A stretch of DNA of 64,000 bases from Sphingobium sp. (GCA_041396745.1 JAWKXZ010000002.1:724665-788664); one strand, 5' to 3'; positions 1 through 62,170 are shown, numbered from the stretch's first letter. Numbers and translations: made by a program. Notes: generated by a model from the letters alone, not told the origin.

Positions 1-339
1 CAAGGCGTGCGCGGCTTCGCGATCCCGCCGATCCTTCGATCGTGCCCCTGCCTGCTGTGCGGCGACCGTCACGAGACGACGCTGCAAATCGTCTCGCAAG
101 AAGCTTTCCTCGATTGGCGCCTGCTTTTGCAGCTCCTCGAAGCGATCCTGCGCGATAAGGGTGGCGAGCGCCTCCCGGCGCACCTGTGCCGCCACGATGG
201 CGTCGTCGTCAATACATTCGTTGCGCTCACCGATCCGAATCCACTCGGCCAGGGCCGCGTCGACACGGGCGAGATGCCCCCGGCATATCTCGAGTATCTC
301 TTCACGCGTGACGATGCGCACGACTTTCGGCCCGCTCAT
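1..339 (-). CDS. Hypothetical protein, N-terminal part only (gene runs off the window edge); translationally coupled to the helicase fusion gene
   Basis: ATG at 339-337 overlaps the TGA stop (338-336) of the 2092-aa ORF (ATGA). Hand translation of the reverse strand gives MSGPKVVRIVTREEILEICRGHLARVDAALAEWIRIGERNECIDDD..., open for 113 codons down to position 1. It is absent from the ORF track because no stop lies in the window. No family recognised. Confidence 0.5.
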   Translation of the reverse strand, partial: MSGPKVVRIVTREEILEICRGHLARVDAALAEWIRIGERNECIDDDAIVAAQVRREALATLIAQDRFEELQKQAPIEESFLRDDLQRRLVTVAAQQAGARSKDRRDREAAHAL

Positions 340-3300
340 GGCCGAGCACCCAGTGCAGCGGTTACGGCGGCTCTCAGCCGGTCCCGCTCCCGCGCGGGCT
401 CGTGAAACCAGCGATGCGACGAAACGCGGTGAATCACGGGGATCGACCGCCGCAGCACGCTGGGCCGCCAAAGCTCTCTGGCGCGCGCGGCTTCGAGAAG
501 CCCATGACGCGGCGCATCACATTCGATCCCGATGCCATAAAGACCAGTTCGCGGGTCCTCGATCGCAAAATCGAGCCCGAACGCGCCATCGTCGCTGACC
601 GCGCTCGGCTGCCACCCGAGCGCCCGGATTTCCTCGGCGACCGCGTCTTCAAGCCCGTCGCCCAGACCATCATAACGGCCATGGCTGCGGCGCTGCTCGG
701 GGGTTAAACGCGTCAGCAAGACACCAGCGGCATCCAAGTCGCCATCGGAAACGCAGCGGGCATATTCGAAATAGGCCTGGAGGAAATCCCGCGGACTGGT
801 GGCCTGCCGCCGCGTGGAAAGAAGGTCGGAGATCAGCGGAATCGGCATCGAGGTCACGAGAATGACCTTCTGCCGGGCCCGCGTCACCGCGACATTGAGC
901 CGGCGCTCACCACCATTTTGTCCGAGCACGCCGAAGAAACGACGAAACGTGCCCTGCGCGTTGCGGCCGAACGTCGACGAGAAGACGATGACGTCGCGCT
1001 CGTCGCCTTGCACATTCTCGACGTTCTTGACGAAGAAGCCCATATCCTCGCCGCCTTCAACCCGATCCCGCTCGCGCGTGAGCGCAATGCGGAACGCGGC
1101 ATCATCCTCGGCGCGGTCCTCGAGCACTTCCTCGATCAGGTCCGCTTGCTTGCGATTGAAGGTCACCACGCCCACCGTCGGGATCTTGCCTGCTCCGGCT
1201 TGCCACAGTCTGCGGAGCGTATCAGCGACAAGCTCGGCTTCGGTGCGGTTCGTCTGATCCTCATAGACGCCGTCCGCCCGGATCATCTCGATCGGCTGGG
1301 CGCGTCGGATCTCGTCCGCCGGATGCCGCGCCGGTACGCTCAGGCGGTTGACGTAGAAGGAGGCATTCGAGAACTGGATGAGCTCGCGATAGGCTGAGCG
1401 ATAGTGAATCTGGAGCGTGGTCGATGGCAGAACCGTCTTGGCGAGCTGCAGCAGGTCCGGGCAATCCTTGATCTCACGGCGGTTCCACGTCTCCGCCGCT
1501 GCCTCACGCTCCTCCTCGCCAAGCTCATCGTCTATGTCCTGACCGTCATAGACTTCCGCTTCGTCGCTTTCGACCCGGCTCGCGAAGAAGGCGGTCGGCG
1601 GCATCTGCTTTTCATCGCCGCTGACGATCATGTTACGGCTGCGATAGAGCGTCGGCAGGGCATATTCGATCGGCATCTGCGATGCCTCATCGAAGATGAC
1701 CGTATCGAACAGCGCCTTGCGCAGGGGCAGCAGTCGGCTCGCCACGTCCGGATTGACCAGCCAGACCGGGCGAAGCTGCATTAGGCCGAGATCCGCACCG
1801 AGATCGACAAACTCCCGCAGACGCTTGGCGCGAACCCCGCGCAGGCGGGTGATGTCTTCCCATTCGCGCAGGGGCCGCATCCGGCTGGCGTCCAATCCGT
1901 CGACCAGCAACCGCCGGTTGAGGGTCCGCATCTCCTGATCGGCCGCCGCCAGCGCCTTCGCCTTGGCTTCGAGCTCTGCTGCCTCAAGAAGCAGGTTCGG
2001 ATCGGCTGTTTCGAGCCGCGACTTCCATGCCAGACGAGCTTCGGTGCCGAGGATACGGCGCACCACGGGCTCGAGCGCCTCATCGTCGAGGCCTTCGAGT
2101 TTGTCGCGAACCCGCGCAAGTTCGGCGAAAATCGCCATGGCGTCTTCGCCGAGCTGCGGGACGCGCGCGCGAAAACGCTGATAAGCGCCGATATGTGGCG
2201 CGTCGCGCTGGAGCCGGTCGAGCTGCGCCAGATCGGTCCGGTCCCCCGCGATCGCATTCGACGCGGCCTCGACCCACGTCTCGCTCATCCAGGGCACCAA
2301 ACGCCTGAGCGCGGCCGCGCAGCTAAGGCGAGCGGCATGTCGAGCCAGGCCCTGGTCGATGCCCTCGATCAAATCCTCGACGGCTTGCCGGTTCGTTGCG
2401 CGCGCCATTGCAAAGGCCGTGTCGCGCTCGGGATAGGCTTCGAGGCGAGTCACCAGCATTTCGGCATCGGAAAGCTGCGCGAGCGCCCCCCGGGCCGATT
2501 CAAGCAATCCCGCGACCCGCAGCGGCGGCAAATGCCCCGAAGGTTCGCCAATGTCGCTGACCGCTTCGATCAGCCGCGCTCGAATCGGGCGAAGGCCCTT
2601 CTCGCGGTGGAGCGCCTCCCCGAATGCCGGACCGTCGATGAGGCCTTCCTGTTTGAACAACTGGCGGCGTCGCCAGCTGGCAACCCAGCGTGATGGCGAC
2701 AGCCTTTCCATGAAGCTTGGCCGGGCCAGCAGCCGGTCGGACAATGCCGTCCATTCGTCCAGCGCGTCATCGGAGAGCGCCCGTGCGACCTCGATCGCAT
2801 CGTCCGGCGCCTCGTCCGCCGGGAGGCGCAGCAGGCTCTGTTCGACCTCCGCCACGGCCGTTTGCATGGCCGTGCTGCCCGGCGCGCGCGCCGACGCACC
2901 AGAAAGACGGTCGAGCCAGCGCGTCAGACGGCTTCGTGCATCCTGATCCAGACCCAGCAAATGTGCGCCATGATTATGGGACCAGGCGCGATAGGGTTCA
3001 GGATCATTGATCGTCAGCGCATTGGGGGTGCGCTCGTTGACGCCCTGCCGCTCGCGCTCTAGCCGTATGAAATCCTGAAGGTCTTGCGTGAAGGTTTCGA
3101 GGGTGCCGACATCGACGCCGAACGGGCGCGTATCGGCGAGTGCGCTGCCTTCGAAATGGGCGGGCAGCCACAGCCGGGCGACGGGCGCGCAGCTCTCCTG
3201 CAGCACGACGAGGCGCCCGGGGTCCAATGCACCCAGCAGATAGCGCAGCGACGGCAAGGACGGCGCCTCGCCTTCCCGCGCGAGACCGATCAGATCGCCG

Positions 3301-6300
3301 AGGATCAGCCGATAGGATAATCCGGTCTGCTCGTCGGTCGCATGCAGCGCGCGATGTTGCCCATCGAGTTCGCGCTCGAGCGCCTCGATGCGGGCGGCCA
3401 TCTGCTGACGCTGTTGCCGCCAGCCCGACGCGCCATAGGGACGCTGGTATAGCTCCTCGAGCTGTTCCCGTATCGCGCGAATAACTGGCTCGCGATCCTT
3501 GTTGACGTCATTGACCATGATGACCCGCTCACCGAGGCCAGCGGCATCGAGGCGCTTGTGGACGACCTCGAGCGCCGCCTGCTTCTGACAGACCACAAGC
3601 AGGCTGCGGCCGGTGCCGATCGCATCAGCGACCATGTTGACGATTGTCTGGCTCTTGCCGGTACCCGGCGGCCCTTCCACCAGAAGCCCGCGACCATTGC
3701 GCGCCTCCAACACCGCCGCTTCCTGTGAAGGGTCACTATCGGCCGTGAAATAGCGATTGATTTCGGCGACGCGCACCGGCACCGCCCGCTCGACCTCATC
3801 ACCGACGCGAAAGGCGGTTTCCAGGCTGGAGCCGGCCGGCGGCATAGCTTTGAGCTGACGCAGATCCTCCATCACCGCCTGGCCGAGAAAGCCGAGATGG
3901 AACAAGGCAGCCGAGCAGACAATCCGGTCATCGCCCGCTCGCACTTTGAGATCCTTCGAAGGAAGCCCGACAAGGTCGCGGCCCTCAACCGCGGCGAACT
4001 CCCGAAACGCATCGACCACTTCTGCCGCATTGACAGACGACCGGGACAGGACCTCATTGGCGGTCTCGCGCCAACGGCTCGCCGCATCGAGACCCAGCAA
4101 TGTCTCGAAGGCCGGGTTGAGCCGGACTTCTTCCCGGTCGCGATCAAAGGCGAGCGTGACCCGCCCGCGCGATCCTACCTCGGGCGTGAGCCGGACCGGC
4201 CACAGCAGGATCGGGGCGATCCGAGGCCGCGTACTCGCCTTGGCTTCCTGCATGACGAGAAACGGGAAGCCCATATAGAGCCCGTCAATGCCGGTGTCGC
4301 GGCGATAGAGCGTGGCATGCGCGTAAAGCGTGCGCAGTCGGCGTTCGAGCCGCGGGTCCTCGGTCAACGGCGCGGGATCGACCTCGATCGCCTGGTCATT
4401 GCGTAACAGCAGATGATCGAGCAAGTCGGCCGCGCGGCGGCGGGGACTGTCGAGTTCGATGAGATCGATGCGTGCGGTGGTCTTGCCGATGACCATGCGC
4501 GTGAGCGGGCCGCGCATGATCGACCCGGTGATTCGCCGTGCGAAGAAATCCAGAAGGGTCGCAACATAGGATTGCCGCGGCGGTTGGCGCCAGCGGTCTT
4601 CCGGGACGCCAAGGACCGCCAGAGCGCGGGCGATGGGAAGCCGCCGCTCGAGGCGAAACTGGTCGGCCCATTCGTCGATGCGATCCAGGCCGCTGCGCGC
4701 AAAGCCCTCGATCCGGCCTTCCAGCTCGGCATGCAGCTCGCGCCGGGGCAGCGCGAGCCGGGCAATTGCCGCCTCGCGATCGAAGCCTTCGAGACCGGCG
4801 CGGCGCGCGGCTTGCTCGGCTTCCTCGACAATGGCATCCGCGCTGCGGAACTGCGACACTGCCGCGCTGAGAAGGAGGATCAGATCCTCCTCTTCGGTGA
4901 TGCGTCGTTCGACGATCGCCAACAATCCGGGATGATCGGTGTCCGGAAGGATACGCCGCTGCTCCTCCCAGACACTGGCAAGCCGGCTCTTGGACGTGGA
5001 CAGCGCCAGCGTTCGCAACTTGGTCTCATCGAGCTCGACATCGAGTTGGCGTGCGCGATCGCGCACCCGCGCCTCGCGGCGCTTCAACCGGGAAAGCCAG
5101 AGTTCGGAATCGTCGCGCTCGAGCCGGTCCGGTACGGGACCGGTGATCAGCGCATAGCCTTCTGCGGGATGATCGATCAGCCAACCGGGCGTCACGATCT
5201 CACCGTTTACCACCAGCGGCATCGCCGGATTAAGCGCCTTGAGCGCAAGCGCGAGCCGAAAATCCTCGGAAACCTGCTCGATACCAGAGATCTGGCGGAC
5301 CTCGGCACGCAGATCGGGATGGAGCCCGGCTTCCTCCATCCAGGTCACAAGCTCACCACGGAGGAGGAGGTCGCGCGCCTCATCCCAATGATCGGTCTCT
5401 GCGGCCGCCAAAGCGAACGGCACGCCGCCCGAAAATCGCTGTTCGCCCAGCATGATGGACCGGCTCGCCCTGTCATCGGCCAAGGTGCCCTGCCGCGCCG
5501 GGGCTTCGGGAATATCACCGTCGAGCCAACGCCGCACTTCGGGCCAGCACCAGCGCAAACGCCGATCAGACGCCAACAGGCCGCGAAGCAAGGCATCGAC
5601 TTCGGGCGCAAGTCCGTCAGGAATCGGCGCGCCGTTGGTCAGCACACTGATCAGAAAGGCCTGGTCATCCGCGCCGGCAAAGCAAGCGCCATGCGTGACC
5701 TGCTCAAGAATGAGCATGCCAAGGCTCCACCAGTCGCTCGCCGCGGCGACGCCCCCCGCAACCGCTTCGGGCGCGGTGTAGCGCGTGATCTCGAGCGGCG
5801 ACACGATATCGAGGTCGTAGTCGGAGAGTCGCGCCGAACCGAACCCGGTTACGACGAGATCGAGCGGATCGCGGGACCGCACCATGATCGCGCCGGGCCG
5901 CAGGTCTCGATGGCGCAGGCCACATTCGGCAAGCGCAGCAAGCGCGCCGCCTACCTCTTCGAGAATGCGCGAAAGCGTGGCGACATCGTCAGCGACAAGA
6001 CCGAGATCGGCGAAGGTTCCGCCGCGCAAATCCTCGGTGACTTCATAGGCCCGGTCGCCATAATGGCCGGTCTCCAGGATCTCGGGGACATGGTCACGGT
6101 CGAGCGTCCGCAAGATCTCATAAACGTCAGGATCGGGCTCGCTGCCCAGCGCATAGAGCGTGACGATCGCCTCGCGCTCGTCCGTGTCGCGCGACGCTTC
6201 GTAGCGCTCACGTACATGGCTGGTCGTCGGTAAGCGCCTGAGCAGGCGCCATTCGCCGATCCGGGTCTCGCTGGCCGGTTCGTCGGCAGGCGCCGAGACC

Positions 6301-6614
6301 GCTTCCGTACCGGCTGAAGACCGACCCGCCGGCACTTCGACATCCGCAGGGCTGGTGGCCATCACGACATCGGCGCCGCAGATCGCACAAATCAGATCGC
6401 CTGGCTCGACCGCATGGCCGTTGGCGCATCGCAGCTCGGGCGGCGCGACCGAAGGAGTAGATACAGGAGAGCCCTGCTCGGCCGGACGCCATCCCGGTTG
6501 TCGCAGCGCGACGCCAGACAGGGGCCAGTCGCAGAGCTTGCCGTCCAGCTCACCCTCGCAGAACATCTCGTCGATCGGCCGCTCGCTTCGGCAATTTGGG
6601 CAGAAGCGGATCAT
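336..6614 (-). CDS. 2092-aa multidomain protein: N-terminal zinc ribbons, degenerate Ser/Thr-kinase-like domain, DUF4011-like region, Upf1-like SF1 helicase (AAA_11/AAA_12 type), C-terminal Vsr/DUF559-like endonuclease fold
   Basis: Zinc ribbons: CPNC...C...C and C..H...CAIC (aa 5-80). Kinase-like motifs: HRDLRPGAIM (aa 235), GFG in place of DFG (aa 257), TRYTAPE, DWWSLG. DUF4011-like stretch: LYMGFPFLV...APILLWPVRL. Walker A GPPGTGKS (aa 981-988, nt 3651-3674). Walker B VIFDEASQ (nt 1677-1700). Also IHYRS, VENVQGDERDVIVFS, and motif VI NVAVTRAR (nt 873-893). C-terminal GLDFAIED...GIGIECDAPRH resembles PD-(D/E)xK Vsr/DUF559 domains. Confidence 0.9.
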   Translation of the reverse strand: MIRFCPNCRSERPIDEMFCEGELDGKLCDWPLSGVALRQPGWRPAEQGSPVSTPSVAPPELRCANGHAVEPGDLICAICGADVVMATSPADVEVPAGRSSAGTEAVSAPADEPASETRIGEWRLLRRLPTTSHVRERYEASRDTDEREAIVTLYALGSEPDPDVYEILRTLDRDHVPEILETGHYGDRAYEVTEDLRGGTFADLGLVADDVATLSRILEEVGGALAALAECGLRHRDLRPGAIMVRSRDPLDLVVTGFGSARLSDYDLDIVSPLEITRYTAPEAVAGGVAAASDWWSLGMLILEQVTHGACFAGADDQAFLISVLTNGAPIPDGLAPEVDALLRGLLASDRRLRWCWPEVRRWLDGDIPEAPARQGTLADDRASRSIMLGEQRFSGGVPFALAAAETDHWDEARDLLLRGELVTWMEEAGLHPDLRAEVRQISGIEQVSEDFRLALALKALNPAMPLVVNGEIVTPGWLIDHPAEGYALITGPVPDRLERDDSELWLSRLKRREARVRDRARQLDVELDETKLRTLALSTSKSRLASVWEEQRRILPDTDHPGLLAIVERRITEEEDLILLLSAAVSQFRSADAIVEEAEQAARRAGLEGFDREAAIARLALPRRELHAELEGRIEGFARSGLDRIDEWADQFRLERRLPIARALAVLGVPEDRWRQPPRQSYVATLLDFFARRITGSIMRGPLTRMVIGKTTARIDLIELDSPRRRAADLLDHLLLRNDQAIEVDPAPLTEDPRLERRLRTLYAHATLYRRDTGIDGLYMGFPFLVMQEAKASTRPRIAPILLWPVRLTPEVGSRGRVTLAFDRDREEVRLNPAFETLLGLDAASRWRETANEVLSRSSVNAAEVVDAFREFAAVEGRDLVGLPSKDLKVRAGDDRIVCSAALFHLGFLGQAVMEDLRQLKAMPPAGSSLETAFRVGDEVERAVPVRVAEINRYFTADSDPSQEAAVLEARNGRGLLVEGPPGTGKSQTIVNMVADAIGTGRSLLVVCQKQAALEVVHKRLDAAGLGERVIMVNDVNKDREPVIRAIREQLEELYQRPYGASGWRQQRQQMAARIEALERELDGQHRALHATDEQTGLSYRLILGDLIGLAREGEAPSLPSLRYLLGALDPGRLVVLQESCAPVARLWLPAHFEGSALADTRPFGVDVGTLETFTQDLQDFIRLERERQGVNERTPNALTINDPEPYRAWSHNHGAHLLGLDQDARSRLTRWLDRLSGASARAPGSTAMQTAVAEVEQSLLRLPADEAPDDAIEVARALSDDALDEWTALSDRLLARPSFMERLSPSRWVASWRRRQLFKQEGLIDGPAFGEALHREKGLRPIRARLIEAVSDIGEPSGHLPPLRVAGLLESARGALAQLSDAEMLVTRLEAYPERDTAFAMARATNRQAVEDLIEGIDQGLARHAARLSCAAALRRLVPWMSETWVEAASNAIAGDRTDLAQLDRLQRDAPHIGAYQRFRARVPQLGEDAMAIFAELARVRDKLEGLDDEALEPVVRRILGTEARLAWKSRLETADPNLLLEAAELEAKAKALAAADQEMRTLNRRLLVDGLDASRMRPLREWEDITRLRGVRAKRLREFVDLGADLGLMQLRPVWLVNPDVASRLLPLRKALFDTVIFDEASQMPIEYALPTLYRSRNMIVSGDEKQMPPTAFFASRVESDEAEVYDGQDIDDELGEEEREAAAETWNRREIKDCPDLLQLAKTVLPSTTLQIHYRSAYRELIQFSNASFYVNRLSVPARHPADEIRRAQPIEMIRADGVYEDQTNRTEAELVADTLRRLWQAGAGKIPTVGVVTFNRKQADLIEEVLEDRAEDDAAFRIALTRERDRVEGGEDMGFFVKNVENVQGDERDVIVFSSTFGRNAQGTFRRFFGVLGQNGGERRLNVAVTRARQKVILVTSMPIPLISDLLSTRRQATSPRDFLQAYFEYARCVSDGDLDAAGVLLTRLTPEQRRSHGRYDGLGDGLEDAVAEEIRALGWQPSAVSDDGAFGLDFAIEDPRTGLYGIGIECDAPRHGLLEAARARELWRPSVLRRSIPVIHRVSSHRWFHEPARERDRLRAAVTAALGARP

Positions 6615-7255
6615 GCCGCGAACCCCCCGCGCATCTCCGAGGTGCGAGCGCGATGACCTGCCGCCGAAAGCGCGCGGCGTAGCCGCCCGATATCGCCGCG
6701 TGCCGGAATGCCGGCAAGCCAGGCATCGCCATCGGCATCGAACATCACATCAAGCTTGCGGTCGCCGCTCACCAGGTCCCGATCATAGCCCGCCATCGCC
6801 TGCCCGCGTGGGGTCAGGATATGCAGCTGCTGATTGTCGCTCCCGCGCATCGCCTTGGTCTGCGAAAGCTCGGCGCGGAAAGGCCCGGTGACGATCGCAT
6901 CGACAAGATCCGGATGAGCCGACAGCCAAGTCTGGAGGTCGGCGATCTCGCGCCCCGTGAACAGCAGGACCGAGCGATCGGAGAGGTTGCGCCAGGCGGC
7001 AAGTATCGCGGCAAGCGCGTCGGGCTGATCGAATGGCTCACCCCCGGAAACAGTAAGGCCCTCAGCCTCGCCTGCCAGCGCCGCGATCCGCTCGGTCACA
7101 TCGGACAGCGGCACATGACCCACATCGTGGGCCCAGGTGTCGACCGAAATACAGCCCGGACATCGGATGCTGCAGCCCTGGAGCCACAGGCCGATCCGGC
7201 GCCCGGGTCCCAGCGCGGTCACGGGAAAGTGGAGGCGCGACACGGCGATCCGCAT
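6611..7255 (-). CDS. Radical SAM protein of the NrdG/PflA glycyl-radical-activase type (4Fe-4S single-cluster domain)
   Basis: ALGPGRRIGLWLQGCSIRCPGC contains CxxxCxxC (C28, C32, C35; nt 7151-7174). The SAM-binding-like motif LTVSGGEPFDQ is present. The 214-aa size is typical of activases. Start overlaps the upstream stop by 1 nt (TGATG) and its stop overlaps the downstream start (ATGA at 6611-6614). Confidence 0.85.
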   Translation of the reverse strand: MRIAVSRLHFPVTALGPGRRIGLWLQGCSIRCPGCISVDTWAHDVGHVPLSDVTERIAALAGEAEGLTVSGGEPFDQPDALAAILAAWRNLSDRSVLLFTGREIADLQTWLSAHPDLVDAIVTGPFRAELSQTKAMRGSDNQQLHILTPRGQAMAGYDRDLVSGDRKLDVMFDADGDAWLAGIPARGDIGRLRRALSAAGHRARTSEMRGGFAA

Positions 7256-9081
7256 CAGGCGTCTCCGAGCTCGAGCGTCGTGATCGCGCCAGCGGACAAG
7301 CTGCGAATGACAGCCGGGCCTTCGCTCTCGCGCTCGAACAGGGCGCGGGCCAGCGGATTGATCAGATGTGCCTCAATCTTGTTGCGGATGCCGCGACCGC
7401 CATTGCCAAGATCCGCAGTGCACAATTGTTTGAGCTTGGCATGCGCCTCGGGCGCGATGGTGATCGAGCGGCCGGCATCGGCCGCATCCGCGAGAACCGA
7501 TGCCACCATTGCGTCGAAAATCGTTCCGGCAACCTCGCTTCGGATGAAATCGAAAACGATGATGTTCTCGCCAAAGCGGTTCAGGATCTCGGGACGGTTG
7601 AGAACAAGCTTGAAGTGGTTCTCGATCTCGGTGCGCACGCGACTCTGCACCTCCTCGAAGGGCTGGTCGGATGTGACGTTGGCGCGGCGCTCGCCGTCCG
7701 GTCCGGTGGCGTAGATGCCAAGGTTCGAGGTAAAAATGATGAGCGCTTCGGAAAAATAGACCCGATCACCGCGCCCGGAGGTCAGCACACCATCATCGAG
7801 AATCTGCAGGAACTTGTCGAGAATACGCGGATGCGCCTTCTCGATCTCGTCGAACAACACGACGCTGAAGGGCCGCTCGCGGACCGCATTGGTCAGTTCG
7901 CCGCCGACATCATAGCCGACATAGCCGGGTGGCGCGCCGATCAAGCGCTGGTCAGCATGCTCCGCGCTGAACTCGGACATGTCGAACCGGATATAGGCGC
8001 TTTCATCCCCGAACAGCAGTTCGGTAATGGTCTTGGCAAGCTCGGTCTTTCCGACACCGGTCGGTCCAGCCAGAAAGGCGATGCCGCGCGGGCGCCCGCC
8101 CCGGCGGCTACCGCCGATACCGGTTGCCGCGCGCTTCACGATATCGAGCATATGAACGACCGCATGGTCCTGCCCGACGACCCGGCGGCGGATCGCATCC
8201 GCCCCTTCAAGAATGCGGTGACGCTCGATCTTGCGCCACGCATCTTCAGTTACGCCCACCTTGTAGCGCCGCACGGCTTCGGCGACATCGCCGATCGGCA
8301 CCCCCTCGGCGCGGGCGAGCTGCGTCACCGCGTTCAGATCGACCAGCAACATACCTTCGGTCGTATCGACAAGGTCATCCTGCGCCTTGGCAAGCGCTTC
8401 GGCCGAGGCGTCGCGGCCGCCCGGCATACCACGCACCAGCGAGGGCCCTACGGCGCGGCGTGCGGCGCGGTCGGGTGTCGCGATCGGAATGTGCCGCAGG
8501 CGCGGATTGTCGATCATCAACCAGTCGGGGAGGTCGCCTTCCTTCTCGACAATCCAGATGATGCTGTTGAAGCGGGGCGCGCGTTCGGGACCCACGGGCC
8601 GTGCTTCGGCGGATTGCCCGAGCACGAGCGCCTGGGTGAAGAGCTGCTGCTCGACGGGCGACAGCGCATCGCTGCGAATGACCAATCGCGAGGCGAAATC
8701 GACGATCAACGCCAGCGGGGGGCCATCGAGATCGGCAAGCCGCTGGAGCGTGGTCGCAAGGAGCTCGATGCCGCCTGCAGCGCGGCCATTGGCGGGAGTT
8801 AGCCCGAGACGGACAAGCGCCGCCGCTGGATCATCGGACGGATTGTCAGGATTGGCGATTGCCGCGAATCCTTGTACGGGATCGTATCGAACCACATCGG
8901 CATAGCCCGCGCCCGATAAGGTCGCGGCGAGCACCTCGGTAAGCGAAGCCGCCGCCGCCCGGTCTCTAATCGCGCGTATGTGAAGATCGCGGACATTGCC
9001 CGTCAGCACGAACTGACTTTTCAGTGGCAGGAAACGGGTGAGATCACGCACCCAGCGTGGTTGCAGATCCTCACCCGTCAC
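7255..9081 (-). CDS. ClpB/ClpA D2-like AAA+ ATPase with a divergent ~300-aa N-terminal region
   Basis: Walker A GPTGVGKT (aa 339-346, nt 8044-8067). IRFDMSEF..IGAPPGYVGY, Walker B VVLFDEIEKAHP, DDGVLT and IIFTSNLG match the AAA_2 (Clp D2) signature. A C-terminal GGRGIRNKIE ClpB_D2-small-like motif is present. GTG start at 9081 is preceded by GAGGGGGA. Confidence 0.85.
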   Translation of the reverse strand: MTGEDLQPRWVRDLTRFLPLKSQFVLTGNVRDLHIRAIRDRAAAASLTEVLAATLSGAGYADVVRYDPVQGFAAIANPDNPSDDPAAALVRLGLTPANGRAAGGIELLATTLQRLADLDGPPLALIVDFASRLVIRSDALSPVEQQLFTQALVLGQSAEARPVGPERAPRFNSIIWIVEKEGDLPDWLMIDNPRLRHIPIATPDRAARRAVGPSLVRGMPGGRDASAEALAKAQDDLVDTTEGMLLVDLNAVTQLARAEGVPIGDVAEAVRRYKVGVTEDAWRKIERHRILEGADAIRRRVVGQDHAVVHMLDIVKRAATGIGGSRRGGRPRGIAFLAGPTGVGKTELAKTITELLFGDESAYIRFDMSEFSAEHADQRLIGAPPGYVGYDVGGELTNAVRERPFSVVLFDEIEKAHPRILDKFLQILDDGVLTSGRGDRVYFSEALIIFTSNLGIYATGPDGERRANVTSDQPFEEVQSRVRTEIENHFKLVLNRPEILNRFGENIIVFDFIRSEVAGTIFDAMVASVLADAADAGRSITIAPEAHAKLKQLCTADLGNGGRGIRNKIEAHLINPLARALFERESEGPAVIRSLSAGAITTLELGDA

Positions 9082-9115
9082 GTACCGAATCCCCCTCGTC
9101 GCGCCCCATCCTATC

Positions 9116-9127
9116 CTAGCGCGCTAG
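9116..9127. promoter_or_regulatory. Perfect 12-bp palindrome CTAGCGCGCTAG about 35 nt upstream of the AAA+ gene start; candidate operator
   Basis: Palindrome read directly. It lies in the low-GC divergent intergenic region between the cargo operon and the recombinase module. No binding protein is identified. Confidence 0.3.
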
Positions 9128-10036
9128 AGCAAGGTATCCAGTTAAGTGACAAGGTCAATGTTGAGCCGTGACAATAGTTTGCCAATTGACATAAAGAAGA
9201 AATCTACCGGTTCATTTCTTGTAGAGCTGCACAGGCCGCAAAAGTCGCTTAGCTCCAAAAACGGGATCATTCCTCTGGTGCAAAGTGATGGTGCGTTATG
9301 GTCCGCTGTAGAGTAGTTCGTTCTCGTGCTGCACCCCTGTATTCCTCGCGCGATCGACGCTGAGGCAAATGCGGGCTGAACGGCCACGTCCGTCGGGAGC
9401 CACCGCTCTGGCGAGCCCTTTCAAGCATTTGAATGCTCAGTTGGCCGCTTGAGCAAGAATTTCGGCGCGGACGGTATCGCTCTTAGATCAACGGACTCTC
9501 GATTCTGGCCGCTCATGCGATGATGCAGGTCCTTTCCCATCATCATATCTGCGAATCCCGCCTCAAAAAATTTCGGTGAAACCCATATAGAACAAGCAGT
9601 TTGTTGTATAAAGTCACCGAGGTTACGATCGGCCGTCAGTTTTGACTGAGACTGTGGAACAGATACAAGGTAACGATAGCCCTACCGGGCTGATCCCCAT
9701 GAATAATATCGGGCGCGTAGCGTCAGTCGGTTCTCGCCCTAATGTACAGCAACTTACGGGAGCAGTTGGCGAGCACTCGGATGACCGTAATTAAGGCGCT
9801 TTGCTGACATAGCCCCTGGGAGCGAGGAATGTCCGGTTACCCCGGTTCAGTTCGTACAAGCAGACTAACCGGATCGTCTGAACAGGCGACATTCTGCTCG
9901 ACTTCCGGTGTAATGTGAGCATTGGTGTTTTTGTTGAATCGCGCCGGTGAACGACCGGCGCTGCCCTGACCGAGCAATCGGCGGGGCTGTGGGTGGTGGG
10001 AGCGACATGGCGTCGCTCCGACAAGGAGACCACCCA

Positions 10037-10321
10037 ATGGATATAATTGAACAGACCGAAGCATCCGCGACCACCGTTGCCACCACCTTTGAGGCGTCTA
10101 CTGACGCACCAACCGCGCCAACGTCCCGGATCACAAAATCAGCAGCAGTGACCAAGCTGCTCTCGCGCAACAAAGGTGCCACGCTGGGTGAGATCATGGC
10201 GATTACGCACTGGCAGCCACACAGCACCCGAGCCTTCCTCACCGGATTGCGGAAGAAGGGTGTCGAACTGCTGCGCGAGACGCGAAGCGGTGGCGAGACC
10301 AGCTACCGGATTGACCGTTGA
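10037..10321 (+). CDS. DUF3489 domain protein
   Basis: TKSAAVTKLLSRNKGATLGEIMAITHWQPHSTRAFLTGLRKKG matches the DUF3489 pattern. The ATG at 10037 is preceded by AAGGAG. The longer track ORF (9947) lacks an RBS. Confidence 0.7.
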   Translation: MDIIEQTEASATTVATTFEASTDAPTAPTSRITKSAAVTKLLSRNKGATLGEIMAITHWQPHSTRAFLTGLRKKGVELLRETRSGGETSYRIDR

Positions 10322-10767
10322 TGGCTCGATTGGAAGACCAGCTTGATATGCTGGAAGCTATGTCGAAGGCCCAGCTCCGTGCCGAATGGCGACGCTGGCA
10401 CAAGGAGCAGCTGATACCGGTGGGACTGGGCCGGGATCTTGCAACCCGCGCCATCGCCTGGGCAATGCAGGAGAAGGTGCACGGCGGGCTCACGCCCGCC
10501 GTCACACGCCAGTTGCGCGGTCTTGCAAAGGAACTGGACGAAACCGGCGATATCGATATTGGGAAAACTATCTCCCTAAAACCCGGCACCAAGCTGACAC
10601 GCGAGTGGCATGGCCATATCTACCATGTGCTGGTCCTGGAACAGGGCTTCCAGTTTCAGGACCGGCATTACCGCTCGCTTACACCCATCGCGCGCGAGAT
10701 CACCGGCGCCCACTGGTCGGGCCCACGCTTCTTCGGTCTCAAGGAGAAGGCCGGTGTCGCCTCGTAA
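10318..10767 (+). CDS. DUF2924 domain protein
   Basis: LRAEWRRWH...LATRAIAWAMQEKVHGGL...TREWHGHIYHVLVLEQGFQFQDRHYRSLTPIAREITGAHWSGPRFFGL is typical of DUF2924. ATGA overlap with the upstream gene. It sits just upstream of a serine recombinase, the usual context for this family. Confidence 0.75.
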   Translation: MMARLEDQLDMLEAMSKAQLRAEWRRWHKEQLIPVGLGRDLATRAIAWAMQEKVHGGLTPAVTRQLRGLAKELDETGDIDIGKTISLKPGTKLTREWHGHIYHVLVLEQGFQFQDRHYRSLTPIAREITGAHWSGPRFFGLKEKAGVAS

Positions 10768-12319
10768 CAGGCGCCGCTGCGCCATCTATACTCGCAAGTC
10801 GACCGAGGAAGGTCTGGATCAGGCCTTCAATAGTCTGGATGCCCAGCGTGAGGCCTGTGCCGCCTACGTGATGAGCCAATGCCATGAGGGGTGGGAGCTG
10901 GTGCCAGATCTCTACGACGATGGCGGTTATTCCGGCGGCAATATGGATCGTCCGGGCCTCAAACATCTCCTGGATGACGTGAAGGCAGGTCGAGTCGATA
11001 TCATTGTCGTCTACAAGGTTGATCGCCTCACCCGAAGCCTCGCCGACTTCGCAAAGATCGTTGAGGTACTCGACAAGCAGGGCGCCTCGTTTGTCAGCGT
11101 AACCCAAGCGTTTAATACCACGAACAGCATGGGACGGCTTACCTTGAATGTTCTCCTGTCCTTCGCCCAGTTCGAACGCGAGGTGACGGGCGAACGCATC
11201 CGCGACAAGATTGCGGCATCAAAGGCCAGGGGCATGTGGATGGGCGGCTCGGTACCACTTGGCTATGAGGTCAAGGACCGCAAGCTCGTCGTCGTACCTG
11301 AGGAAGCTGACAGGGTCCGCATGATCTTCGAGCGCTACCTCACCTTAGGTTCGGTGCTCGTGCTGGCAGAGAATCTCAAGGCGGAAGGAATAAGGAGCAA
11401 GGTGCGCGTAAGCCGAACAGGCAAGGAATATGGCAATGCGCCATTCAGTCGTGGTGCGCTCTATCTCATACTCAAGAACCGCATCTATCTGGGCGAGATC
11501 ATGCACAAGGGAAAGGCCTATCCCGGCGAGCATGACGCGATTATCGACCCAGACCTGTTCAATCGTGCCGCCGCCTTGCTTCGGCAGAACCGGAACAACC
11601 ATGTGAACGGTGTCCATGCGGAAGAACCCAGCCTGCTCGTCGGCAAGGTTTACGATGGTCTTGGCCGCATAATGTCGCCAGACCATGCCAGTAAGAGGGG
11701 CAGACGCTATCGTTATTATGCCAGCCGTACCGAAGGGAGCTGCAAGGAGCCAAAGGCATGGCGCGTTCCGGCAGGTGATCTCGAAGGGCTGGTGCTAAGC
11801 CAGCTATCCCGGCGCTTCGATCCGGAGACGATGTCGACGGAAATCCTCTCGATCCCCAATATGGCAATGAGTGAGCAGCGTGCGCTGATCGGAACCACGA
11901 TCGAACGGATCGACATTCACCTCGACCGGGTAGACATCCGCTTCACTGATGGCGAACAGACAAGTGTTGCCGCGCCCATCATCCGTCGCGGCCGGGAGAC
12001 TCGCCTTGCCGTTCCGCCTGATCAGCAAGCTCACGCCCAACGCGACCCAGCGCTGATCAAGCTGCTCATAAAGGCGCATCGCGCGCGCCAAGCGGTTGAA
12101 ACCAACAACGATCGCGCGATTGCGGAGCTTGCCCAGATGCAAGGGTACAGCCGCGACTATTTTGGTGTGTTGCTGCGCATCGCCTATCTGGCGCCCGACA
12201 TCGTCGCAGCCATCCTCGATGGGCGGCAGCCGGTGCAGCTCAATCGCCAGCGCCTTGCTCGTGCCACCAACCTGCCACTCGACTGGCAGGGGCAGCGCGC
12301 CATGCTGGGGTTCACTTAA
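10754..12319 (+). CDS. Large serine recombinase (resolvase/invertase N-terminal catalytic domain plus recombinase domain)
   Basis: RCAIYTRKSTEEGLDQAFNSLDAQREAC carries the catalytic Ser motif. DGGYSGGNMDRPGL, VVYKVDRLTRS, SMGRL..NVLLSFAQFEREVTGERIRDKI and GYEV.DRKLVV are also present. GTG at 10754 is preceded by AAGGAGAAGG. The track start at 10610 lies inside the DUF2924 gene and was rejected. Confidence 0.9.
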   Translation: MSPRNRRRCAIYTRKSTEEGLDQAFNSLDAQREACAAYVMSQCHEGWELVPDLYDDGGYSGGNMDRPGLKHLLDDVKAGRVDIIVVYKVDRLTRSLADFAKIVEVLDKQGASFVSVTQAFNTTNSMGRLTLNVLLSFAQFEREVTGERIRDKIAASKARGMWMGGSVPLGYEVKDRKLVVVPEEADRVRMIFERYLTLGSVLVLAENLKAEGIRSKVRVSRTGKEYGNAPFSRGALYLILKNRIYLGEIMHKGKAYPGEHDAIIDPDLFNRAAALLRQNRNNHVNGVHAEEPSLLVGKVYDGLGRIMSPDHASKRGRRYRYYASRTEGSCKEPKAWRVPAGDLEGLVLSQLSRRFDPETMSTEILSIPNMAMSEQRALIGTTIERIDIHLDRVDIRFTDGEQTSVAAPIIRRGRETRLAVPPDQQAHAQRDPALIKLLIKAHRARQAVETNNDRAIAELAQMQGYSRDYFGVLLRIAYLAPDIVAAILDGRQPVQLNRQRLARATNLPLDWQGQRAMLGFT

Positions 12320-12542: not shown

Positions 12543-12618
12543 TGGTGCCCGGGGGCGGGATCGAACCACCGACACTGCGATTTTCAGTCGCATGCTCTAC
12601 CAACTGAGCTACCCGGGC
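12543..12618 (-). tRNA. tRNA-Phe (anticodon GAA), CCA encoded
   Basis: The reverse complement GCCCGGGTAGCTCAGTTGGTAGAGCATGCGACTGAAAATCGCAGTGTCGGTGGTTCGATCCCGCCCCCGGGCACCA folds as a cloverleaf: 7-bp acceptor stem, anticodon loop CTGAAAA, T-loop TTCGATC. Confidence 0.95.
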
Positions 12619-62096: not shown

Positions 62097-62170
62097 GGCC
62101 CGATGGCGGAGTGGTGACGCAGCGGACTGCAAATCCGTATACGCCGGTTCGATTCCGGCTCGGGCCTCCA
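62097..62170 (+). tRNA. tRNA-Cys (anticodon GCA), CCA encoded
   Basis: GGCCCGATGGCGGAGTGGTGACGCAGCGGACTGCAAATCCGTATACGCCGGTTCGATTCCGGCTCGGGCCTCCA has acceptor stem GGCCCGA/TCGGGCC, anticodon loop CTGCAAA and T-arm GCCGG-TTCGATT-CCGGC. Confidence 0.95.

Follow-up and report, generated by a model that had tools for sequence, protein, structure and literature searches.

What is achieved by an operon that couples a chaperone-type ATPase to a radical S-adenosylmethionine (SAM) protein and to a giant helicase-nuclease? This question is raised by four minus-strand genes at the start of a 64,000-nucleotide stretch of Sphingobium sp. DNA (GCA_041396745.1 JAWKXZ010000002.1:724665-788664), hereafter called the window. 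An earlier reading of the stretch (the original prediction) had taken these genes for one translationally coupled unit, carried as island cargo, that joins its parts in a combination which it could match to no named anti-phage system. We propose, with a probability of about 0.55, that the operon is a horizontally mobile four-protein conflict system directed against phages or plasmids and that it operates by the mechanism described below.

The coupled operon and its four proteins

The operon is composed of four genes (coordinates are those of the open reading frame (ORF) list of the window; domains were called with Pfam, NCBIfam and PADLOC profiles). Gene 1 (7255..9081, minus strand) starts with GTG and encodes a two-tier Clp/Hsp100-like AAA+ ATPase of 608 residues, as assigned by its ORF, Pfam and a Protein Data Bank (PDB) match. 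Gene 2 (6611..7255, minus strand) encodes a 214-residue NrdG/PflA-type radical SAM protein, identified by Fer4_12, a PDB profile search and an AlphaFold2 (AF2) model compared with Foldseek. Gene 3 (336..6614, minus strand) encodes a 2092-residue giant that combines zinc ribbons, a pseudokinase, a DUF4011 segment, a superfamily 1 (SF1) helicase and a Vsr-like nuclease according to Pfam, PADLOC and NCBIfam. The fourth gene, whose product is called G4, is visible as an ORF that starts at 339 and runs for 113 codons (1..339, minus strand); full-length homologues exist, and the rest of the gene lies beyond the window edge.

Read on the minus strand, consecutive genes are joined by TGATG at 7253-7257, ATGA at 6611-6614 and ATGA at 336-339. 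The same overlaps of 1, 4 and 4 nt are seen again in the homologous cassettes of loci L004, L088, L089, L091 and L094. Because gene calling at these loci was independent, the junctions are conserved rather than products of chance. Thus, the claims of a single coupled unit of four minus-strand genes and of a fourth ORF of at least 113 residues that leaves the window both stand.

The four-gene order is kept in Neomegalonema, Novosphingobium, Sphingomonas, Bradyrhizobiaceae, Methylorubrum/Methylobacterium, Hahella, Pseudomonas sp. LD120 and two Acidobacteriota, and the cassette is also located on eight Rhizobium or Caballeronia megaplasmids. Its order and overlapping junctions span alpha- and gamma-proteobacteria and Acidobacteriota, and the block is kept across phyla with differing flanks, in line with the expected co-occurrence of the genes across genomes. 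A wider sample came from a search with the radical SAM alignment in which each species was represented by one genome. It yielded 80 loci for six-frame profile searches; neighbourhood counts refer to the 51 of these for which at least 18 kb was available. Could the four genes nevertheless be unrelated neighbours whose overlaps simply reflect the compact layout of high-GC operons? ATGA and TGATG overlaps are frequent in bacteria. However, the same order and junctions recur in at least 14 species-level loci of three phyla and on 8 plasmids, and an AAA+ gene with the same N-terminal half and a kinase domain accompany the radical SAM gene in 43 of the 51 loci. Chance adjacency is refuted by these observations and retains almost no probability.

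The C-terminal half of the AAA+ protein (residues 263-608; 7258..8295, minus strand) is a ClpB-D2-type motor by Pfam, NCBIfam, alignment and PDB comparison. Pfam assigned AAA_2 (1.3e-45) and ClpB_D2-small, and the ClpB D2 domain ranks first in the PDB (4lj4, E 4e-59, residues 264-589), in agreement with the ClpB-D2-like ATPase of 608 residues that had been predicted. The Walker A motif GPTGVGKT, with K345 as its lysine as foreseen, the Walker B motif FDEIEKA and the pore loop GYVG are intact, and all three are conserved in an alignment of 35 homologues. The N-terminal half (residues 1-262; 8296..9081, minus strand) is family-specific by profile comparison, has no Pfam family and is present in 60 of the 80 species loci. 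Its comparison with the D2 half by hhalign gave no profile similarity, and the idea of a recognisable D2 duplicate was therefore rejected. A weak match (E 0.0024) connects the profile of this half with the lid junction R-x-I-x-I-x-x-PD-x-x-x-R of the VAT/VCP AAA modules, and a G-N-x-x-D loop without a P-loop lysine is found at the P-loop site. From these sequence features, the N-terminal half is probably a degenerate D1 tier. Gene 1 thus resembles ClpB/Hsp100 in its ClpB-D2-type module, intact pore loop and D2-small domain but lacks the ClpB N-domain, middle domain and active D1, in place of which it contains the probably degenerate N-terminal half. Its match to the ClpB model TIGR03346 covers the D2 region only (252.7 bits, cut-off 1232).

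Gene 2 was recognised by Pfam as Fer4_12 (6.4e-23) and Radical_SAM, falls below the cut-off of the NrdG model TIGR02491 (71.9 against 126.1 bits) and displays ~33% identity to phage and bacterial NrdG over residues 3-144. The protein is 100% identical to an NCBI entry under the name Sphingobium sp., which assigns the window to a metagenome-assembled genome of that name. Its profile finds PflA in the PDB (3c8f, 1.9e-9), and PflA is also the top Foldseek match of its AF2 model (pLDDT 80; E 8.5e-5 over 130 aligned residues), which confirms the proposed NrdG/PflA-type protein of 214 residues. The invariant columns of a 25-sequence alignment include the three cysteines named in the original prediction, C28/C32/C35, which form the CxxxCxxC motif for the [4Fe-4S] cluster and SAM (7151..7174, minus strand), as well as G71-G72-E73-P74 (GGEP) and G16/G18/R20. 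The G16-x-G18-x-R20 loop is located directly upstream of the cluster motif, and the Asp of DGxGxR is replaced by Leu15. The DGxGxR loop touches the substrate in the PflA-peptide structure. Gene 2 thereby contains the features of a glycyl-radical activase (CxxxCxxC, GGEP and the GxGxR loop) on the small Fer4_12-type fold of NrdG/PflA, and it departs from these enzymes in its sub-cut-off score, the leucine substitution and a conserved C-terminal extension of ~65 residues. Its setting also differs from that of glycyl-radical activases: the hosts are aerobic, the neighbours encode an ATPase, a kinase and a nuclease, and no glycyl-radical enzyme was found nearby, as NrdD/Gly_radical gave no match among the neighbouring genes scanned with Pfam in the window and related loci. 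The matches of the radical SAM protein in phage collections are ordinary NrdG and not members of this family.

Does gene 2 act on a small molecule rather than on a protein? Radical SAM enzymes with precedents in immunity are either makers of small molecules (viperins and QueE of Dpd) or agents of peptide maturation (HXS). By analogy with the former, the product of gene 2 activity would be either a second messenger or a chain terminator like those of viperins, to which the AAA+ protein and the helicase-nuclease would respond or alongside which they would act. Besides these precedents, viperin-like enzymes come next after PflA in the Foldseek search (E 7e-3 to 6e-2), QueE is weakly similar by NCBIfam (7e-4) and no protein acceptor motif turned up. 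However, the viperin-like alignments extend over only ~75 residues of the cluster/SAM core, compared with 130 for PflA, and gene 2 has no match in PADLOC, which sets it apart from the prokaryotic viperins (pVip) with their nucleotide-binding C-terminal domain. In addition, the NrdG-sized model appears to be devoid of the extra barrel strands that enclose the substrates of viperin and QueE, the activase loop GxGxR is kept, and protein-remodelling ATPases are always paired with the radical SAM gene. We therefore regard small-molecule chemistry as unlikely.

Gene 3 is a chain of six segments, all on the minus strand. Two zinc ribbons (residues 1-90; 6345..6614) were recognised by conserved Cys pairs and by jackhmmer, which also finds them in the kinases of related loci (class B, described below) and in proteins with a zinc ribbon and an FHA domain (ZnR-FHA). 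The ribbons are followed by a pseudokinase (residues ~115-365; 5520..6272; Pkinase 5.4e-14 and alignment with class B kinases), in which HRD is retained while Thr stands in for the beta3 Lys, Ala for the catalytic-loop Asn and GFG for DFG, and by a post-kinase domain (residues ~385-485; 5160..5462) that jackhmmer relates to the ~800-residue class B kinases at 1e-15 to 1e-23. A DUF4011 segment (residues 753-840; 4095..4358; PF13195 1.1e-12) precedes the core of an Upf1-like SF1 helicase (residues ~945-1925; 840..3782; AAA_11, AAA_12 and AAA_19), which matches SMUBP-2 in the PDB (4b3f, 3.4e-11). This core is composed of 1A with GPPGTGKS (K987), a poorly conserved insertion of ~500 residues (1100-1600) and 2A with DEASQ and VAVTRAR. 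The C-terminal segment is an MTES_1575/Vsr-like PD-(D/E)xK nuclease (residues 1989-2083; 366..650; PF18741 4.9e-16). In an alignment of 15 class A sequences, that is, sequences of the window type, the helicase motifs (K987, DEASQ and VAVTRAR) and the nuclease residues D2015 and D2033 are invariant, and E2031 is nearly so. Pfam thus returned the predicted series of Pkinase, DUF4011, AAA_11, AAA_12 and MTES_1575, and K987 is the helicase Walker A lysine, as had been proposed.

Neither Pfam, NCBIfam nor PADLOC has a family for G4, whose full-length homologues consist of 436-443 residues. For a 440-residue Novosphingobium homologue (P0167), AF2 predicts (pLDDT 80, pTM 0.72) a long helical bundle or coiled coil followed by a small C-terminal beta/alpha domain, and Foldseek found no fold match for this model in the PDB. 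Two further observations concern residues 204-254 and 376-387 of P0167. A poly-ubiquitin match of the G4 profile was rejected as spurious and repeat-inflated, since AF2 models that region as helical and a single ubiquitin gave an E of ~0.8. An RDxDAExxWC motif with a near-invariant Cys is kept from class A through class B. A near-invariant Cys and Asp of the C-terminal domain are the only candidate functional residues in G4. Out of 1.84 billion, the G4 profile detects 1100 representative clusters at E<=1e-3 and 430 at E<=1e-30.

Three neighbourhoods of the radical SAM family

Where else does the radical SAM protein occur? The 214-residue family is nearly always found in one of three neighbourhoods. 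The 43 loci with the AAA+ gene and a kinase domain are divided into 10 of class A and 33 of class B, 7 of the 51 loci contain Hsp70-like genes instead (class C) and 1 contains neither.

Class A is the arrangement of the window operon, in which a degenerate kinase is fused to a Hhe/ProA-like DUF4011-SF1 helicase-Vsr-like nuclease. Class A kinases are devoid of the beta3 lysine and the catalytic-loop asparagine, and usually of the DFG aspartate. In contrast, class B encodes a catalytically intact Ser/Thr kinase of ~700-950 residues (median ~830) that retains VxK, HRDxKPxN and DFG, and the reading of the gene 3 domain as a pseudokinase is upheld by this comparison. The class B kinase has the same zinc ribbons and post-kinase domain as class A, followed by a C-terminal region of unknown nature. 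Class B also encodes the radical SAM protein and an AAA+ protein that is homologous in both halves, with no helicase or nuclease. In most cases, its homologue of G4 (E 1e-50 to 1e-80) lies directly upstream of the AAA+ gene and overlaps it. Class B is distributed among Streptomyces and other actinomycetes, beta-proteobacteria, Synergistaceae and Firmicutes. Among 44 class B loci, a ZnR-FHA gene was found in 37, a CHAT gene in 17 and a PP2C gene in 9. The CHAT protein of actinomycetes consists of ~1200-1350 residues with a caspase-like CHAT protease domain (PF12770, 2e-44) at its C-terminus (L033 10788-14639), and CHAT is also found at L036, L040, L043, L044, L057, L059-L061, L063, L068, L070, L072, L074, L083 and L084. 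It is accompanied by zinc-ribbon/FHA genes and, at some loci, by PP2C genes. The presence of CHAT with FHA and PP2C partners in actinomycete class B loci suggests that exchangeable effectors are mounted on an AAA+/radical SAM/kinase core. As far as we found, class B is undescribed.

Class C was observed in Firmicutes and cyanobacteria (L046, L052, L058, L064, L069, L073, L078 and L086; for example, L058 5274-14923). It comprises two Hsp70-like genes, an AAA protein of 840-1400 residues (PF00004 and AAA_lid_6) and an unknown protein of 526 residues, and it contains no kinase. The class C AAA protein matches the Clp-like AAA+ protein solely at the N-terminus, where the first ~80-100 residues are common to both (the first ~80 residues of the class C protein; residues 21-101 of the N-terminal half of gene 1).

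The radical SAM gene is thus always accompanied by genes for protein-remodelling ATPases, either Clp-D2-like or Hsp70-like. The constant core of the family is a Clp-like AAA+ protein, an activase-like radical SAM protein, a kinase or kinase-like protein and G4, and the family is spread over Proteobacteria, Actinomycetes, Firmicutes, Cyanobacteria, Acidobacteriota and others. The window operon is one class of this larger AAA+/radical SAM/kinase/G4 family, and its novelty therefore lies in the core, which appears to be undescribed, rather than in the fusion of gene 3.

Named relatives, mobility and genomic setting

Is the operon already covered by a named system? Gene 3 matches PADLOC PDC-S37 (PDLC05009) at 3.7e-144 and 480 bits in three stretches, the best of which aligns residues 1406-2087 with profile positions 715-1341 of 1550. 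Its match to PADLOC Hhe (PDLC02194; 1e-68, 229.9 bits) has its best stretch at residues 1610-2074 only. In NCBIfam, gene 3 scored 485.6 bits with ProA (NF058533; cut-off 1500), covering profile positions 645-1707 of 1903, and 320.7 bits with Hhe (NF042953; cut-off 2000). ProA, Hhe (Gao et al. 2020) and PDC-S37 share with gene 3 the DUF4011 segment, the Upf1-like SF1 helicase with a long insertion and the C-terminal Vsr/DUF559-type nuclease. The helicase-nuclease part of gene 3 is thus a member of the Hhe/ProA/PDC-S37 superfamily, and a PADLOC run might label this one gene as candidate PDC-S37. However, the N-terminal ~640 positions of the ProA profile are unmatched in gene 3, which has the zinc ribbons, pseudokinase and post-kinase domain there instead, and ProA and Hhe are single-gene systems, whereas gene 3 is always accompanied by AAA+, radical SAM and G4 genes. 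A stand-alone DUF3320 protein from a Bosea plasmid served as a control and was identified as ProA at 1698.2 bits (cut-off 1500). This ProA has neither the kinase module nor AAA+, radical SAM or G4 neighbours, so the N-terminal ~750 residues of gene 3 and the three partner genes go together. In that Bosea sp. Tri-49 plasmid (L093 4760-15334), ProA is split into ORFs of 344 and 1562 residues and is followed by genes for an SbcD-like protein and a 1163-residue SbcC-like ATPase, possibly as a separate association. The window system may conservatively be viewed as a variant of Hhe/ProA helicase-nuclease defence, with a core that may prove categorically new once its chemistry is known.

The remaining candidates differ from the operon in their key components. 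PADLOC matched gene 1 weakly to Dodola DolB (63.6 bits) and PDC-M37B (96 bits), in each case at the ATPase core over ~120-180 residues, and DolA (DUF6414) has no match among the four operon proteins, which places the operon outside Dodola. Matches to Mokosh MkoA (2e-47, 160 bits) and MkoC are confined to the helicase 2A region, and the gene 3 nuclease is Vsr-like (MTES_1575) rather than a PLD. CnuH of CoCoNuT type III-B is an Upf1-like SF1 helicase fused to a Vsr-like nuclease and has coiled-coil partners (PMC10542128), but domains of the type of its McrB-like GTPase (CnuB) and McrC (CnuC) were not found in the cassette, and neither CoCoNuT nor Mokosh has a radical SAM or Clp-like component. 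TerY-P unites vWA, PP2C and an active kinase, whereas the operon proteins have no vWA or PP2C and their kinase is degenerate; PP2C is found in class B only. PADLOC contains no model for the radical SAM protein, for G4 or for the FHA, CHAT and Hsp70 parts of classes B and C. Our literature search found no description of the gene combination, with the P. aeruginosa genes appearing only as hotspot flanks (Johnson et al. 2023); the surveys consulted from the Aravind and Koonin laboratories describe other ATPase/kinase/radical SAM or Upf1-Vsr systems and do not include this one, and the literature origin of the name ProA was not traced. The generic or sub-threshold matches in NCBIfam, together with PADLOC and the literature, are in keeping with the original view that the combination corresponds to no named system.

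In the window, the operon is carried by an island. The GC content is ~0.65 over the cassette and 0.54-0.60 from the cassette to a tRNA gene. Between the cassette and the recombinase lies a lower-GC spacer (9082..10609; GC 0.54-0.60) with three small minus-strand ORFs of 81, 125 and 117 residues, none of which has a Pfam family, and a sigma-70 consensus scan upstream of the AAA+ gene found no convincing minus-strand promoter. A large serine recombinase of 569 residues (10610..12319, plus strand; Resolvase 1.7e-38, Recombinase 4.9e-13) is probably the integrase of the element. The tRNA-Phe(GAA) gene (12543..12618, minus strand; ARAGORN, and Rfam at 68.1 bits) directs its 3' end toward the island, and housekeeping genes for Maf, biotin synthesis and an H+-pyrophosphatase (H+-PPase) are located past it; tRNA-Phe is the boundary between island and chromosome. 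Thus, the operon is the cargo of an island with a serine recombinase at a tRNA 3' end, as originally described. No att repeat of the tRNA-Phe island was found within the window, and the far end of the island lies outside it. The second tRNA gene of the window, tRNA-Cys(GCA) (62097-62170, plus strand), is distant from the operon.

Homologous cassettes are found in changing company. L004 is flanked by an integrase and HipAB, and L002 by MarR/MFS and TRAP transporter genes. On conjugative Rhizobium megaplasmids, the flanks are IS66, TcmP and an N6-methylase (pRL1) or IS21 (pRLgr12_2). The cassette of Sphingobium sp. 3R8 and C100 comes after TrbL/VirB8/CagX/TrbI genes that belong to an integrative and conjugative element (ICE), and in a Novosphingobium metagenome-assembled genome, it follows a Toprim/YAcAr/AAA_34 helicase block typical of ICEs. 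These transfer genes or Toprim/YAcAr/AAA_34 blocks precede the cassette at L088 2412-7949, L089 1-2010 and L091 945-7600. The sphingomonad transfer block also contains DUF2274 and HTH_17, and an SNase (thermonuclease) gene is located after the cassette on the opposite strand; these flanking genes are ICE backbone and lie outside the operon. In R. leguminosarum pRL1 (L087 9367-15262), the giant gene is listed as two coding sequences, a DUF4011 protein and an AAA protein, and the AAA+ gene is unlisted, possibly as a result of frameshift or pseudogenisation in some copies or of gaps in the PLSDB gene table. RefSeq names on plasmid copies are generic ('AAA family ATPase', '4Fe-4S single cluster domain-containing protein', 'AAA domain-containing protein' and 'hypothetical protein').

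Does the operon serve its element rather than the host? As an ICE or plasmid competition, entry exclusion or addiction module, it would degrade incoming rival DNA or kill cells that lose the element. Such a role is consistent with the carriage of the cassette by conjugative megaplasmids and with its position directly beside the transfer genes of three sphingomonad elements. In the window, moreover, it is the final cargo ahead of the recombinase and the att end. However, cassettes L002, L016 and L019 are situated away from recognisable transfer genes, and the cassette is reported to be fixed in the P. aeruginosa chromosome. An element-serving module would differ from defence mainly in its beneficiary and not in its mechanism, and we consider it rather improbable.

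Do the neighbours point to defence? Among nine large flanking proteins tested from six loci, four match defence models, in three loci. An Old/AriA-like nuclease (2e-54) and a GajA/LmuB-like ABC-ATPase are located directly beside the cassette in L009 (640-6461). PDC-S06 (1.6e-163) adjoins a class A cassette in L011 (4340-7018), and a Tiamat TmtA-like protein of 1647 residues (8e-66) adjoins another in L012 (1862-6805).

The P. aeruginosa genes are a special case. From two papers and the PAO1 annotation, we tentatively equate the cassette with PA2725-PA2728 of PAO1, in which PA2725 is a 'probable chaperone' and PA2726 a 'radical activating enzyme'. In every P. aeruginosa isolate, a DUF4011 gene, a radical SAM gene and a gene for a small hypothetical protein are reported to form a fixed flank of the defence hotspot cDHS1 (PMC10250203, Johnson et al. 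2023). PA2727/PA2728 carry kinase or repair annotations and are placed in the category of replication, recombination and repair (PMC4918941). The reported fixation partly bears on core synteny regardless of islands, which the original prediction had named as evidence against its proposal, but it does so for P. aeruginosa only. The changing flanks and the carriage by ICEs and plasmids therefore identify the cassette as mobile cargo in alpha-proteobacteria that is apparently fixed in one species.

Is the operon instead a genome-maintenance or stress module, in which a repair or replication-restart helicase-nuclease is governed in its assembly by a chaperone and a redox- or SAM-sensing Fe-S protein and is kept as core in some species? 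The fixed position and the repair annotation in P. aeruginosa suit such a module, as do the SbcCD-like genes that adjoin genuine ProA and the failure to find the system on phages. These points are opposed by the patchy distribution of the cassette, its carriage by ICEs, plasmids and a tRNA island and its Old, PDC-S06 and Tiamat neighbours. Furthermore, the CHAT and FHA/PP2C genes of class B are typical of conflict systems, and the closest named families are anti-phage proteins. A maintenance function is accordingly judged improbable.

Proposed mechanism and its meaning

How would a conflict system of this composition work? In our proposal, the effector is the C-terminal two-thirds of gene 3, where the helicase-nuclease would translocate on and cut the nucleic acid of an invader or, in an abortive response, of the host. 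The zinc-ribbon, pseudokinase and post-kinase module would not phosphorylate but would act as an adaptor that docks the effector onto the core. This idea is based on the absence of the kinase module and the partner genes from ProA and on the intact kinase of class B compared with its degenerate counterpart in class A, and an adaptor role would explain why class A does without the phospho-signalling genes for FHA and PP2C proteins that are found in class B. G4 may be a coiled-coil scaffold or a sensor. The AAA+ protein, with a dead D1, a live D2 and the GYVG loop, would function as a single-motor unfoldase, with a protein partner as the substrate to be remodelled or threaded. The radical SAM protein would then abstract hydrogen in a SAM-dependent manner from the exposed segment of this partner, as a licensing step or an irreversible switch for the effector.

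The action of the radical SAM protein on a protein segment rather than a small molecule is probable and is the least certain step of this scheme. It is suggested by the activase-like size, fold and loop motif of gene 2 and by the constant company of protein-remodelling ATPases. A classical stable glycyl radical is unlikely because the hosts are aerobic. A bolder version, in which the AAA+ protein, the radical SAM protein and G4 constitute a protein-radical immune switch, is doubtful. In this version, the unfoldase would feed a segment of the effector, of G4 or of a phage protein to the activase-like enzyme, oxygen would cleave the chain at the resulting backbone radical, and cleavage, as an irreversible protease-like trigger, would license differing effectors. 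These would be the helicase-nuclease in class A, a CHAT protease or kinase signalling for class B, and partners of the Hsp70 type for class C.

Several observations weigh against the proposed conflict system and its mechanism. The hosts are mostly strict aerobes, in which glycyl radicals are unstable. A conserved RVxG[FYW] glycyl-radical loop was found in none of the AAA+, G4 and kinase/giant alignments, and the glycine of the GLGYEV motif in G4 is not kept in class B, although a foreign protein or a non-canonical site may be the true substrate. The D1 assignment of the AAA+ N-terminal half relies on a weak match (E 0.0024). Defence neighbours are confined to three of the loci tested. G4 is absent from the 2.9 million viral contigs of IMG/VR, and prophage carriage, which is common for defence systems, was unseen. 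The core status reported for every P. aeruginosa isolate is unusual, though precedented, for defence genes, and there is no experimental phenotype anywhere. Taken together, a conflict or defence function appears fairly probable, and our confidence in the specific protein-radical mechanism is low.

What would this system mean for its hosts? We found no earlier description of an NrdG/PflA-type activase in association with a Clp-like unfoldase, a kinase module and exchangeable effectors. The P. aeruginosa version is reported at the edge of the main defence hotspot in every genome and has so far been treated as a landmark only. If the operon is a defence system, it would be a common, unannotated immune module that is added to ICEs, to plasmids and to the repertoire of an important pathogen, and PA14 and PAO1 would provide a tractable model for a glycyl-radical-type activase in an aerobe. 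The protein-radical switch, if true, would rest on a biochemical principle that is new to prokaryotic immunity and would give activases a new role outside anaerobic metabolism.

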